Shown one piece after another: positions 46,329 to 52,288 of a stretch of DNA of 64,000 nt. Numbering within the stretch: the stretch's first letter is position 1; each line of letters begins with the position of its first letter. The notes below the pieces were generated by a model, which did no database searches, was not told the origin of the DNA, and was given only the letters and a program-made list of their open reading frames with translations. The translations under genes and the position numbers were made by a program. Source of the DNA: Planctomycetales bacterium (GTDB lineage Bacteria > Planctomycetota > Phycisphaerae > SM23-33); the NCBI GenBank assembly GCA_030612725.1, contig JAUWNJ010000010.1, forward strand, positions 32,837 through 96,836. The letters are read 5' to 3'.

Positions 46329-46503
46329 TAAAGGTGCAAATAATGCCCGTCTCTAAAGCCGATAGATGAGCGACGCGAAGCGCCCCTTCGGGAAGCGAAT
46401 CCGTCGGAAACGAAAATAAACTCGAAAGATTCCGAAAAATCGCCGAAAGTAAAAATACCTGCTTGAAAACTCGCCGGGTTGCGGCGAAGATGAACGGGTA
46501 TGT

Positions 46504-46577
<74 letters not shown>

Positions 46578-46667
46578 ATGTTTGACCTGCCGGGTTTTTT
46601 CTTGACGAACCTGTCGGGTTTGGGATAAAAACTCGGTAGGTTTGTGTAATTAACGATACAAAGGAGC

Positions 46668-47875: not shown

Positions 47876-48703
47876 ATGAGTATTATCAAGATCGCGCTGG
47901 CGCAGGTATCGGCGACGGACAACAGAGAAGAAAACCTCCAAAAAGCCTTCAGCCTCATGGAGCAGGCGAAAGACCAGGACGCCTCAATCATCTGCTTCCC
48001 CGAAATGGCCTTCGACCCGTTCTTTCCGCGAGTCCGCACCGACAAGCGATATTTCGACCTGGCCGAACCGATTCCCGGACCGATGGTCGAGAAGTTTCAG
48101 GAAAAGGCAAAGCAGCTATCCCTGGCCACCGTCATAAATATGTACGAACTGGCTGCGCCGGGAGAATACTACGATTGCTCGCCGGTGATAGACGCCGACG
48201 GCGCCCTGCTTGGCATCAGCCGGATGATGCACATCGCCGAACTACCCAATTACAACGAAAAATTCTACTATTGGGAAGGCAACACGGGCTTTCCGGTTTT
48301 CCAGGCGGGCGGCGCGAAGATCGGGATCGCCATCTGCTATGACCGCCACTTCCCCGAACAGATGCGGGCGCTGACGCTCGGCGGAGCGGAGATTATCCTC
48401 GTCCCGACCGCCACGTCCACGCCGGCGCTAAAGCACATCTGGCACGTCGAGATGCAGGCGGCCTCAATAGCAAACCAGGTGTTCGTAGCATTGAACAACC
48501 GGGCGGGAACCGAGGGCGAAATGACCTTCTTCGGAAGGAGTTTCGTCGTCAACCCGCGCGGCGAGGTTATCGCGCAGGCCAAGGAAAACGAAGAAGACCT
48601 GCTGGTGGTCGAACTGGACCTCTCGCTTATCGAGCAGACCCGACGGGACTTACCATTCCTCCGCGACCGCAGACCCGACGCCTATGGCCCGCTGATTGAG
48701 TAG
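47876..48703 (+). CDS. Carbon-nitrogen hydrolase (nitrilase superfamily)
   Basis: IALAQV...ICFPEMAF... and the Glu/Lys/Cys arrangement (GIAICYDRHFPE) typical of CN hydrolases. Confidence 0.75.
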   Translation: MSIIKIALAQVSATDNREENLQKAFSLMEQAKDQDASIICFPEMAFDPFFPRVRTDKRYFDLAEPIPGPMVEKFQEKAKQLSLATVINMYELAAPGEYYDCSPVIDADGALLGISRMMHIAELPNYNEKFYYWEGNTGFPVFQAGGAKIGIAICYDRHFPEQMRALTLGGAEIILVPTATSTPALKHIWHVEMQAASIANQVFVALNNRAGTEGEMTFFGRSFVVNPRGEVIAQAKENEEDLLVVELDLSLIEQTRRDLPFLRDRRPDAYGPLIE

Positions 48704-48734
48704 GCTGGGCCGGAGCGAAGCGGAGTCCCACCTT
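48700..48734. repeat. Single-arm copy of the gtaggctgggccggagcgaagcggagtcccacctt element, immediately after the nitrilase stop and followed by a T run
   Basis: Identical to the arms in lipA (37946.., 38010..) and at the lipB-lipA junction (37297..). Confidence 0.5.
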
Positions 48735-48807
48735 ATCCCTTTTTTAATCCACAATCCGCAATTTGATCTCTTGATCATTCGCTCGATTTGATCAACGATC
48801 GCGGCCA

Positions 48808-50112
48808 ATGAGCGAAAACACAAAAAATCCCCCCACCTACTTCACCGATGCCGCCGGACGCTTCACCCTCTATCAGGGAAATTGCCTCGAACTGATGCCG
48901 CTACTACCGGCCTGCTCATTCGACCTCATCTTCGCCGACCCGCCGTATTTCCTCTCCAACGGCGGAATCACATGCCATGCCGGGAAGATGGTCTCCGTCA
49001 ACAAGGGCAAATGGGACCGCTCGATGGGCTTCGCCGGAAACTACGCATTCACCAAAGACTGGATCGCCCGATGCCAACGCCTCCTCAAACCCAACGGGAC
49101 AATGTTCGTCTCCGGCACCAGCCACATCATACACATCGTCGGAGCCGTTATGGACGAACTAGGCCTGAAAATCCTAAACGACATCACCTGGGTAAAGCCG
49201 AACCCGCCGCCGAACCTGTCGTGCCGGTATTTCACGCACGCTGCCGAGACGATTCTCTGGGCAGGCCGGGATAAAAAGTGCCGGCACAAGTTCAATTATC
49301 AGTTGATGAAGCGAATCAACGGCGGAAAGCAGATGAAGAGCGTCTGGACGGATATAGAAACGCCGCGACGGGACGAAAAAGTCTTCGGAAAGCACCCGAC
49401 GCAGAAACCGCTCGCCCTTCTGGAGCGGATAATCGCAGCCGCCAGCGACGAAGGCGACCTCATCCTCGACCCCTTCAGCGGCTCAGCCACAACAGGAATC
49501 GCGGCTGCAAGAATGAACAGACAATCCATAGGCCTGGAGATGGAAACGGAATTTCTGGATATCGGCGTGCATCGTTTCGTCGGCGTGCCACAGGCTGACA
49601 ATCCCGACCGCATTCTCGATTTAATAAAAGTACATGCTTTGGGAAATCCGACTCCAACCGAACTTGCACGTTGCTTGGGCATGACTGAACGCCAGGCGCA
49701 TTACTACCGGCAAGCCGCTTCAATACTCGGACTACTTCGACGCTCGGAAAGCGGCTGGGCATTGACCGAAATCGGAAAGACCATTTGCGAAAACAGGCAA
49801 TTGTACGCCCGTTCACTTTTAGCGCAAAGGATACTGGAACTTCCGCTCGTCCAGTCAGCCATCAGGAAAAGCCGGAGGTATCGCACCAAAAACACAAAAT
49901 GCCGAATCATTGCAGAGTTATTATCCCGCAGCACCGCACTGACCGGTTCGACTTGCACACGGCGAGCACAAACGCTCTTGGCATGGATAGATTGGTCGCT
50001 GGCGCACTGTTGCGCCGAACCTGTCCTGCCGGTATTTCACGCACACTGCCGAGACGATTCTCTGGGGCGGCAAAACGAAAAGTTGGTAAAATGCCAACGG
50101 TTCGCTATATAA
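48808..50112 (+). CDS. Beta-class N6-adenine DNA methyltransferase of the CcrM/M.HinfI family (probable GANTC specificity) with an extended C-terminal region
   Basis: FADPPY (motif IV) precedes LDPFSGSATTG (motif I), the beta-class order. Block-by-block similarity to CcrM (ILNDITWVKPNPPPN, FNYQLMK, HPTQKPLALLERII). The C-terminal ~170 aa are atypical. Confidence 0.8.
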   Translation: MSENTKNPPTYFTDAAGRFTLYQGNCLELMPLLPACSFDLIFADPPYFLSNGGITCHAGKMVSVNKGKWDRSMGFAGNYAFTKDWIARCQRLLKPNGTMFVSGTSHIIHIVGAVMDELGLKILNDITWVKPNPPPNLSCRYFTHAAETILWAGRDKKCRHKFNYQLMKRINGGKQMKSVWTDIETPRRDEKVFGKHPTQKPLALLERIIAAASDEGDLILDPFSGSATTGIAAARMNRQSIGLEMETEFLDIGVHRFVGVPQADNPDRILDLIKVHALGNPTPTELARCLGMTERQAHYYRQAASILGLLRRSESGWALTEIGKTICENRQLYARSLLAQRILELPLVQSAIRKSRRYRTKNTKCRIIAELLSRSTALTGSTCTRRAQTLLAWIDWSLAHCCAEPVLPVFHAHCRDDSLGRQNEKLVKCQRFAI

Positions 50113-50121
50113 TCGCACACC

Positions 50122-50859
50122 ATGAAACAATATGAAGCAGTCATTCGGACGTTGGAAAACCTGGGGGGTCTCGCAACGTTAGGACAACTCTACGGCGAGG
50201 TGTTCAAAATAACCGACTGCAAATGGGGGACGAAAACGCCGCTTGCAAGCATCCGCCGCATCGTTCAAACGCGCAAAGAAATCTACAAGATAAAACCTGG
50301 CCTCTACGGATTGACCACACTGAAAAGAGAACACGTCTCTCGCGGTATCGTCGCGGAAACGGCGAAGAACAGGGATTCTGCCGAAGTGGTGCGCTTCAAC
50401 CATACCTACTATCAGGGTTTGCTGCTCATCGTCGGAAAACTGAAGCGATTTGATTGCTGGTCGCCCAATCAGGATAAAAACAAAGTGTTTTTGGACGGAA
50501 CAATTGATTCGCTCCGCACCCTCAAGGAGATGCCGCGCTTTTCATACGATAATTTGGTGAATCGCAGCGCGACCGTCGATGTTATCTGGTTCAATGAGCG
50601 CGGAATGCCGAGCAGTTTTTTTGAGATTGAACACAGCAGCGACATCCAAAACTCGCTGCTCAAGTTCAACGACTTGCAGGATTTTCAGACTCGAATGTTC
50701 ATCGTCTCAAACACCAAACGCCGCAAGGAGTATGAAAGCAAAATCAAATACTCTTCGTTTCGGGATATTGCGGGCAGGGCGAAGTTTCTTTCCTTCGATT
50801 GGCTCGTGAAGGAATACGAGCACACCGTCGAAGCAAGCAGCGCAGAAGTAACGCTCTGA
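50122..50859 (+). CDS. Uncharacterised protein with N-terminal winged-helix-like domain and restriction-endonuclease-like C-terminal region; candidate cognate endonuclease
   Basis: Starts 10 nt after the methyltransferase stop. N-terminus resembles Mrr-N-type wH (GGLATLGQLYGEVFKI...IRRIVQTRKEIYKIKPGLYGL). VDVIWFN...FFEIEH could be a degenerate PD-(D/E)xK core. Lower GC. Confidence 0.4.
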   Translation: MKQYEAVIRTLENLGGLATLGQLYGEVFKITDCKWGTKTPLASIRRIVQTRKEIYKIKPGLYGLTTLKREHVSRGIVAETAKNRDSAEVVRFNHTYYQGLLLIVGKLKRFDCWSPNQDKNKVFLDGTIDSLRTLKEMPRFSYDNLVNRSATVDVIWFNERGMPSSFFEIEHSSDIQNSLLKFNDLQDFQTRMFIVSNTKRRKEYESKIKYSSFRDIAGRAKFLSFDWLVKEYEHTVEASSAEVTL

Positions 50860-50964
50860 TGAGTTTAAGGCGGGTAGCGTGGTCGCGTTTTTGGGGCCAC
50901 ATTTACGTCAGCGCGGCCACGGTTTGTTCCACCAGAAGGCACACAGCAAGGTTGCAACAATGCG

Positions 50965-52032
50965 ATGACAAAGAACGTTTGCGAGAAATGCATATACTGC
51001 AATGCTCCTGTGCAAGGTGGTTCGCAAGGGGACCACGTGATACCGGCAGCGCTTGGAAAGTTCCGAAACGCGACTAACTTCAAACGCATTTGCGTAAAGT
51101 GCAATTCCGAGATTGGCCGCTGTGAGGAACAACTACTAAGGTGCGGTCCGGGAGTGCTGTTCAGGCGATTGGTCATACCGGCAACCCACCGGTCACGCGG
51201 TCAACCCAGAGCTTCCATGACGGGCGCTGGGGGAGTCCCTCCTCCCGAGGTGTGGGCGCACTTCCCAGACCACAAAGAGGCCGTCACTCTAACCGAGTCA
51301 GGCCGAAACGTTGTCGGTTTCGATCACCTGGTTGTTTATGATGATAAGGATGAAGGTCATGTTGTACGTCTGAATCCGAACATGTCGCCGGAGGCACTTC
51401 GGGCGGCCGTCAAAAGGCTTGGCCTCAAGAAGATAAAGGTGACCACCTCGCACTTCGCCAAGAAAAACGAACACACATCTGATCTCTATCTGAAGATATT
51501 TTCACAGGCTTGGCCGGAAGCCCAATATGAGCAAAAACCAGATCTAGATCCGGGAGTGCATCCTGTTCCTGTCGAGTTTAAATTTGTTGCCACCGACCTT
51601 TACTTCCGTGCGATTGCGAAGATTGCTTTCCATTACTACCTGACACAGTCGATGAGGTCGCTAGGGAATGAAGACTATTTTCGAGAAATCAGGGACTTCA
51701 TCAGATACGGTGGCGGAAAACTTGCTGTGGACAAGTTCTTTATTGGCTCAAACATATTCAGTTTCCCGCAGTTCCTAAGTAACATGGTCCCCAGTTGGTG
51801 GCATCATATTCTTGCTACACTGGAGCGCGACGGAACCGTTTTCGCTATGGTCTGTCTCTTCTACGGCCCCGAGTGCAAAGGCGAACGGTACACGTTGGAA
51901 CTAGGAAAGATCCCGGGGCGTATTGTTTTGCCGAAGTCTTGCTGGGCACACACTTATGACTACTTCCGTCCCGAAGACATCGGCAAGTACGCTGGCAAAG
52001 TGCATCCGGTTTCTATCACCGCGCTGCGGTGA
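50965..52032 (+). CDS. HNH-nuclease-domain protein with large uncharacterised C-terminal domain
   Basis: N-terminal CEKCIYCNAPVQGGSQGDHVIPAALGKF...CVKCNSEIGRCE is an HNH/Zn motif. 355 aa. Lower GC than the flanks. Confidence 0.5.
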   Translation: MTKNVCEKCIYCNAPVQGGSQGDHVIPAALGKFRNATNFKRICVKCNSEIGRCEEQLLRCGPGVLFRRLVIPATHRSRGQPRASMTGAGGVPPPEVWAHFPDHKEAVTLTESGRNVVGFDHLVVYDDKDEGHVVRLNPNMSPEALRAAVKRLGLKKIKVTTSHFAKKNEHTSDLYLKIFSQAWPEAQYEQKPDLDPGVHPVPVEFKFVATDLYFRAIAKIAFHYYLTQSMRSLGNEDYFREIRDFIRYGGGKLAVDKFFIGSNIFSFPQFLSNMVPSWWHHILATLERDGTVFAMVCLFYGPECKGERYTLELGKIPGRIVLPKSCWAHTYDYFRPEDIGKYAGKVHPVSITALR

Positions 52033-52200
52033 CGATTTCGCGCTCGCTGGTTTTTAAATCACTTGGATTGCGAAAATAGGCAACCACGGCACTATCCGTC
52101 GGCGAGATGGATGTTCAATTGCAGATTCATCGTGTTCTGAGTCGATCATCAATCGGTATGTGCGTCAAGAGGGAAATCAGCATTTCGCGCGATATCTTCC

Positions 52201-52249
52201 CGCTTCCTACCCTTCGGGTCTGAGCCTCAGGGTCGAAGGGTAGGAAGCG
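52201..52249. repeat. Perfect 16-bp-stem hairpin cgcttcctacccttcg ... cgaagggtaggaagcg with an internally palindromic loop
   Basis: Read directly. Lies within the repeat-dense noncoding region. Confidence 0.55.
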
Positions 52250-52288
52250 GGTATCACCGGGCTTTCGATTATCCCTTGATCGCGCTGT

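Follow-up and report, generated by a model that had tools for sequence, protein, structure and literature searches.

A direct repeat within a planctomycete methyltransferase gene and a probable gene relic in front of the adjacent restriction gene

The methyltransferase-restriction locus

The stretch of Planctomycetales DNA analyzed here, 64,000 nt in full length and hereinafter the window, carries a methyltransferase gene (M) followed by a putative restriction gene (R) and an ORF for an HNH nuclease. The features of the locus are as follows.

48808..50112, plus strand: M, an ORF of 434 aa, beta-class, CcrM-like, with a C-terminal DUF7226 domain (ORF list, Pfam, 6pbd)
49208..49266, plus strand: repeat copy 1, functional coding sequence for the invariant M catalytic-domain block PPNLSCRYFTHAAETILWAG
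49609..50001, plus strand: DUF7226 domain of M, aa 268-398 (Pfam, E 1.7e-15)
50013..50071, plus strand: repeat copy 2, a pseudogene relic of the M motif block, out of frame in the M ORF
50014..50112, plus strand: non-homologous tail of M, 32 codons and the stop, produced as the ORF reads on through relic and R upstream region
50072..50121, plus strand: conserved R upstream block, near-identical in the window and in loci L002, L086, L085, L004 and L005
50122..50859, plus strand: R, putative restriction endonuclease of 245 aa, NmeDI_C family (PF27126 in precomputed matches)
50965-52032: HNH-nuclease ORF, downstream of R

The catalytic domain of M is matched by the Pfam family N6_N4_Mtase (PF01555) over aa 39-252 (E 3.9e-53, profile positions 2-218 of 221), and its motifs come in the beta-class order, with DPPY (aa 44-47) preceding DPFSGSATTG (aa 221-230); both motifs are invariant in an alignment of 19 sequences. 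The closest solved structure is that of CcrM (PDB 6pbd; E 5.9e-55, aa 17-259), which bears out the original prediction of a CcrM-like catalytic domain. DUF7226 is complete in M as well (profile positions 1-138 of 142), and the combination of M with this domain recurs in ~60 of the 120 best homologues. What had been described as an ‘atypical C-terminal extension' is therefore a common domain of the family, not a creation of the repeat, and the ~750 nt between the repeat copies, said to encode that extension, do so but also encode the rest of the catalytic domain (to aa 252). A literature search on DUF7226 found no papers.

Homology of M to the family in the 19-sequence alignment runs to aa ~402 (..AQTLLAWIDWSLA), one codon before copy 2, so that only the last 32 codons are affected and the proposed remodeling of the 3' half of the gene is not upheld. 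The usual family tail (..EE.ND..V..) is absent from the window protein; its ORF ends at a TAA (50110-50112) that lies inside a TATAAT-like box, 9 nt before the start of R. M shares its reading frame with R, and only the stop and three codons lie between the two.

The R ORF is full length against 160 homologues. The assignment of PF27126 (NmeDI_C) to the identical 245-aa product makes R a putative restriction endonuclease; a local scan of R gave no match with a Pfam copy that holds no PF27126 model. The upstream block of R contains TTGGTA (50083-50088) and TATATAAT (50106-50113), with the ATG 8 nt further on. A consensus promoter/terminator scan, the counts of which are at chance level, left the block unflagged, so that its role as a promoter of R is putative. 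The 8-nt gap between the TATAAT-like box and the R ATG (50122) suggests a leaderless or very short-leader R mRNA. A palindrome in the block, GTTGG-N7-CCAAC (50082-50098), scores as a minus-strand terminator-like hairpin; it was rejected as an operator because its arms are not conserved in L002, L004 and L085.

Two copies of a methyltransferase motif block

As originally predicted, a 53-nt near-identical direct repeat is present: the 64-kb window contains the pattern two times and no more, at 49209-49261 (no mismatches) and 50014-50066 (two mismatches), and it came up 0 times in 100 dinucleotide shuffles. Ungapped extension yields 59 nt (49208-49266 versus 50013-50071), of which 55 are identical, at a spacing of 805 nt. 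The perfect blocks common to the two copies are only 13, 18 and 21 nt long; accordingly, the copies share no exact k-mer of at least 22 nt. Both lie inside the single M ORF, and the repeats bracket M codons ~153-402 only, leaving R outside. The predicted reading in two different frames holds, too. Copy 1 is translated as PNLSCRYFTHAAETILWAG and encodes the block PPNLSCRYFTHAAETILWAG, which is invariant or near-invariant across the 19 homologues aligned. Copy 2, in the frame of the ORF, gives AEPVLPVFHAHCRDDSLGR; in the frame of copy 1 it would give PNLSCRYFTHTAETILWGGKTKSW and a stop, and the original M frame would yield PNLSCRYFTHTAETILWGG.

Copy 2 has the features of a gene relic, i.e. 59 nt at 55/59 identity, truncation at both ends, flank homology not above that of shuffle controls, no conserved frame, and counterparts in relatives that range from 50/51 identity to a 13-nt remnant. 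A longer relic was rejected on local alignment scores against shuffles: the spacers of L004 and L005, the tail of L085 and L002 and the flanks of copy 2 (60 nt on the left, the R upstream block on the right) all score within the shuffle range against M. For the A-rich flank on the right, GGCAAAACGAAAAG, a verrucomicrobial-type M (WAAKNEKS) gives a slightly higher score than the window-type M; a foreign origin of this flank was set aside, the difference not being significant at 24 nt.

The relic in related loci

The M motif was used to scan 160 loci encoding R homologues, with the 170 nt upstream of each R start aligned. Fragments of the motif were found at the following positions relative to the R start.

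Window, -107..-42: M-motif fragment, PNLSCRYFTHTAETILWGGKTK
L004, -124..-41: M-motif fragment, KLSPSPNLLYGYFAHAAKTILWAGQKRK
L005, -130..-41: M-motif fragment, similar to that of L004
L085, -90..-40: M-motif fragment, intact over its right-hand 19 nt, with decay and a deletion on the left
L002 and L086, same position before R: 13-nt remnant, TTTCTGGGCCGGT

Downstream of the fragment, all of these loci continue into a near-identical block, AAAACGAAAAGTTGGT..AACGGTTCG.TATATAATCGC..CCATG. Given the common register of the fragments and the shared downstream block, copy 2 is one instance of a relic that is linked to the 5' flank of R. In several lineages the register of the relic ahead of R is fixed, and in some the relic decays or is lost while M and R stay intact. 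Diverged versions at the same register upstream of R in L004, L005 and L085 contradict the view of copy 2 as a duplication specific to the window.

The window, L002 and L086 are orthologous chromosomal loci; L085, a more distant relative, is syntenic with them. To either side, L086 agrees with the window, through holA, CN_hydrolase and M-R, and then again from 52288 on. The closest homologue of M, P0001 (90% identity), is encoded in L002, which is syntenic with the window (CN_hydrolase-M-R). The C-terminus of P0001, ..VKRKVGAMSTVRYIIAHHETI, matches another frame of the window downstream of copy 2, which places copy 2 at the site of the ancestral tail. Homologues with the same extension and no internal repeat, offered at the outset as grounds for abandoning the duplication, do exist, namely in L002 and L086 (M ~90% identical, DUF7226 present, ~13 nt of copy 2).

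The M ORF passes through this region in different ways. In L085 its frame across the relic is that of the original M (..DDTETILWAGQKQKIVKC and a stop), in L002 and L086 a third frame takes it through the same block and into an overlap with the R start, and in the window it uses yet another frame; hence the extreme C-terminus is unconstrained read-through. No domain should be read into the last 32 residues of the window protein, which derive from the relic and the upstream region of R, and it is in such clean, checkable annotation that the main value of the case lies.

Downstream of R, L085 contains a second M fragment (L085:4455-4564; aa 42-85, with an in-frame stop) that is 91% identical at the nucleotide level to window positions 48942-49051, so that R in this locus has M relics on both sides.

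Exchange of the relic together with the restriction gene

In the 51-nt core, the window relic is identical to the M gene of L002 at 50/51 positions, to its own M gene at 49/51 and to the L004 relic at 39/51. The L004 relic, for its part, agrees with the L005 relic at 46/51 positions and with the window-type M at 41/51, compared with 35/51 for its own M. Window and L004 DNA are 72.1% identical over M and 88.8% identical over a blastn block of exactly 50013-50865, and the borders of this ~850-nt unit (relic, upstream block and R) are sharp, at 50013 and ~50865. Because the relics of L004 and L005 resemble the window-type M and not the M of their own loci, and because relic and R are far closer to those of the window than M is, relic and R move as a unit, which has been exchanged between different M backgrounds; the relic forms its left edge. 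L002, L086 and L085, when compared with the window, show no discordance between M (~89-90%) and R (~92%). The locus is thus a small natural example of modular exchange within a restriction-modification (R-M) system.

The same chromosomal site hosts different M 3' ends and varying downstream content. A tRNA-Met gene at window positions 46503-46578 precedes the R-M locus by ~2.2 kb. In L165 this gene is 98.6% identical, and the same site (tRNA-Met, holA) contains a short M (L165:3192-4178 versus window 48838-49577). This M is 86% identical to the window at the nucleotide level as far as the catalytic domain extends (window 49577) and then has a different short C-terminus, with no DUF7226 and with downstream DNA that differs from that of the window. 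L165 represents an allelic replacement of the 3' end of M together with the partner gene. The HNH-bearing segment (50861-52287) is absent from the orthologous L086, which has ~295 unrelated nt there, and L085 has ~2.6 kb of different content downstream of R, so this region is a second variable slot. In L003, P0002, an 81% identical M with DUF7226, is paired with a DpnI-like methyl-directed nuclease, not with an R of the NmeDI_C type; the nuclease gene (L003:1670-2437, minus strand) is convergent with the P0002 gene and overlaps it. This pairing would be odd if M makes GmATC.

Origin of the fresh relic in the window

In L085, L002 and L086, a native-type M tail (..GCRGRGVCGHAATDVNVVANTATTAP..) is followed by a decayed or mostly deleted relic. 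In the window, the native tail is missing and the relic is complete and 96% identical to the resident M. Relative to L085, 101 nt are replaced by 45 nt (50004-50048), of which 36 match copy 1 at 35/36 positions, and collinear homology resumes at CCGAGACGATTCTCTGGG. Since only the window relic is ~96% identical to the resident M, a recent re-copying event is implied.

Taken as a whole, copy 2 is probably a non-functional M vestige of ~59 nt that is joined to the 5' side of the R cassette and has been recently re-copied. In the lineage of the window, the relic would have been copied anew from the resident M by ectopic gene conversion or templated repair, priming on that right-hand portion of the old relic in which homology persisted (CCGAGACGATTCTCTGGG), with copying proceeding leftward from the resident M and illegitimate resolution at the end of DUF7226 deleting the M tail. 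The same event, or a nearby deletion, would have removed ~100 nt, comprising the native tail of M as well as the left, decayed portion of the relic. The loss of the native tail explains why the window M reads 32 out-of-frame codons; its ORF would then run through the relic and the R upstream region to the TAA in the TATAAT-like box. A single event in the window lineage seems to be the most economical reading. An older relic, kept similar to M by repeated conversion and accompanied by a separate tail deletion, fits equally well, as judged from six loci.

At the first mismatch between the copies, the relic has C, as do the M genes of L002, L086 and L085, and the M of the window itself has a derived synonymous G, so that the copying predates at least one substitution. 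The re-copying explanation does not account for the 9 nt at the left junction, GCACTGTTG (50004-50012), and the longest perfect block, at 21 nt, falls under the usual E. coli minimum for efficient RecA-dependent exchange. A past duplication or recombination event had been proposed for the repeat; a footprint of copying or recombination is what remains of this proposal, without the remodeling of the 3' half, given the extent of homology to aa ~402. Apparently, copy 2 is an ordinary scar of gene shuffling in a bacterial defense locus.

Several other accounts of the repeat compete with recent re-copying, of which the least improbable is still unlikely. According to this account, the relic is the 3' end of an old truncated M: an ancestral locus of truncated M and R would have been joined by a complete M with DUF7226 through Campbell-type or homology-facilitated illegitimate recombination, with a recent event behind the near-identity in the window. 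Loci of truncated M and R do exist, L006/L007 (M aa ~8-160) and L017/L018 (aa 21-149), where M is fused to the R upstream region, and in the window the end of DUF7226 abuts the relic with no spacer. However, the truncated M genes found are of a different, verrucomicrobial type, and no window-type truncated M-R locus was found; the L004 and L005 spacers show no M homology to the left of the relic; and the native tail with the decayed relic, present both in the outgroup L085 and in the sisters L002 and L086, makes the relic older than the window lineage. The same-register relics that are recognizable in L085, L004 and L005 also weigh on the notion of a de novo duplication of an M segment, specific to the window, remodeling the 3' end and unrelated to other genomes. 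The 96% identity to the resident copy and the absence of the relic from the nearest orthologues, L002 and L086, speak for such a duplication, but the 13-nt remnant (TTTCTGGGCCGGT) at the same position in those very loci and the right junction with the R upstream block, common to all, speak against it, and we consider it quite improbable. The last of these accounts, a chimeric join or mis-resolved repeat in the assembly, had been raised along with the repeat and is hardly credible. The sequence does come from a metagenome-type assembly, and the only identical second assembly, L001 (Logan SRR12623518; 100% over 3531 nt), may derive from the same reads and so counts only as a different assembler. 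Nevertheless, de Bruijn graph assemblers see no repeat here, there being no exact k-mer of at least 22 nt between the copies; copy 2 carries private substitutions; and relatives of the relic turn up in samples and assemblies of independent origin, L004 and L005 (JGI) and L085 (NCBI MAG).

Whichever way the relic arose, it could have been kept as a functional element, be it a homology handle, a target of antisense RNA that couples M and R, or a suicide switch triggered by deletion. The sharp borders at 50013 and ~50865 within which relic and R act as a unit, the retention of the right end of the relic (..TTCTGGG..) in all loci, L002 and L086 included, the occurrence of truncated M-R products elsewhere and the terminator-like hairpin on the minus strand (50098-50082) are all compatible with a function. 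Yet, the left two-thirds of the relic are decayed or deleted in L085, L002 and L086, where M and R are intact; the identity of the L004 and L005 relics (46/51) is not above that of the neighboring spacer; the relic is read in different frames across loci; and neither Rfam, searched over 48600-51000 with no matches at E up to 1, nor the promoter/terminator scan, with its chance-level counts, points to an element here. A function is thus very unlikely, and the decay in relatives suggests that the relic is non-functional, its right end being retained everywhere possibly as part of the R upstream region. That the relic serves as a portable homology handle, letting the ~850-nt R cassette recombine into resident M genes of the family, has equally little likelihood. 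If it did, recombination in cis or in trans would yield the truncated M-R arrangement of L006/L007 and L017/L018, and this would be a previously undescribed route for a lone R to move between M partners or to kill them off.

A possible deletion route

In the re-copying explanation, the repeat would not do any work, and its sole potential effect would be that of a weak substrate for deletion of the essential 3' half of M. The predicted product of recombination between the copies consists of M aa 1-151 followed by GGKTKSW and a stop; the AdoMet-binding half is lost and R beside it is intact. Such a route, with the essential half of M removed next to an intact R, bears on the decay or self-maintenance of R-M systems. 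With perfect blocks of only 13, 18 and 21 nt, set against the minimal homology in E. coli, the deletion should be infrequent.

In L006/L007 and L017/L018, M is truncated just after the motif and fused to the R upstream region; these loci may be deletion products or precursors. The R of L006/L007 (L006:3501-4238) is interrupted by a premature stop at codon 156, which fits a decaying system; that of L017/L018 is intact. Insertion of R into a split M gene was rejected, since neither L006 nor L017 has a C-terminal half of M beyond R. At L006:4537-5016, R is followed by a MutH-like ORF. None of these findings would surprise specialists in R-M evolution.

GATC sites and motif depletion

Just upstream of the M start, four GATC sites (48765, 48773, 48790 and 48797) are found within 36 nt, arranged as an inverted repeat, CTTGATC-N13-GATCAAC, and a further GATC (window 48764-48800). 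The element is kept in L002, L086 and L085 (four sites) and in L165 and L003 (three sites), although L003 is otherwise unrelated in its flanks. As a candidate, the element may act on the M promoter as an operator or as a methylation-sensitive switch, and DUF7226 might be its binder.

Over the whole window, GATC is strongly depleted, with 130 sites where 338 are expected, and AGCT even further, with 26 sites against an expected 144, which hints at restriction pressure specific to these two motifs. GANTC is not depleted (255 observed versus 241 expected). This contrast raises the question of whether M, which is similar to the CcrM/HinfI (GANTC) group in its catalytic domain and has DUF7226 as its C-terminal domain, is really GANTC-specific.

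Comparison with known systems

In its catalytic domain (aa 17-259, with DPPY before FxGxG), M is like the CcrM/HinfI-type beta-class N6-adenine methyltransferases; unlike CcrM, it has a C-terminal DUF7226 domain and a restriction gene as partner.

Work on R-M-linked rearrangements reportedly goes back to Nobusato et al. in 2000. Insertion of R-M units with long target duplication, allelic R-M substitution and M gene fusion at junctions have been documented (Furuta et al. 2010, PMC2853133). The window resembles these cases in having direct repeats of the ~45-60 bp class with few mismatches beside a Type II R-M unit, in the exchange of an R-M component between genomes and in the altered frame of M at the junction. 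It differs in that the repeats bracket the essential 3' half of the resident M itself rather than an inserted R-M unit, and in that L002 and L086, which are without copy 2, keep both the inter-repeat segment and R, so that there is no ‘empty site'. On these grounds, with R outside the repeats and no empty site in the orthologues, we rejected an insertion with long target duplication.

A closer likeness is to gene relics homogenized by conversion, which are short fragments cut off on either side, with no conserved frame, decayed in most lineages and near-identical to the functional copy in one. Here, unlike in those relics, conversion is deduced by comparison, and the tract is short (36-59 nt, with perfect blocks of at most 21 nt). 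Copy 2 is best classed as a gene relic that sits at the boundary of a cassette and was probably refreshed by conversion.
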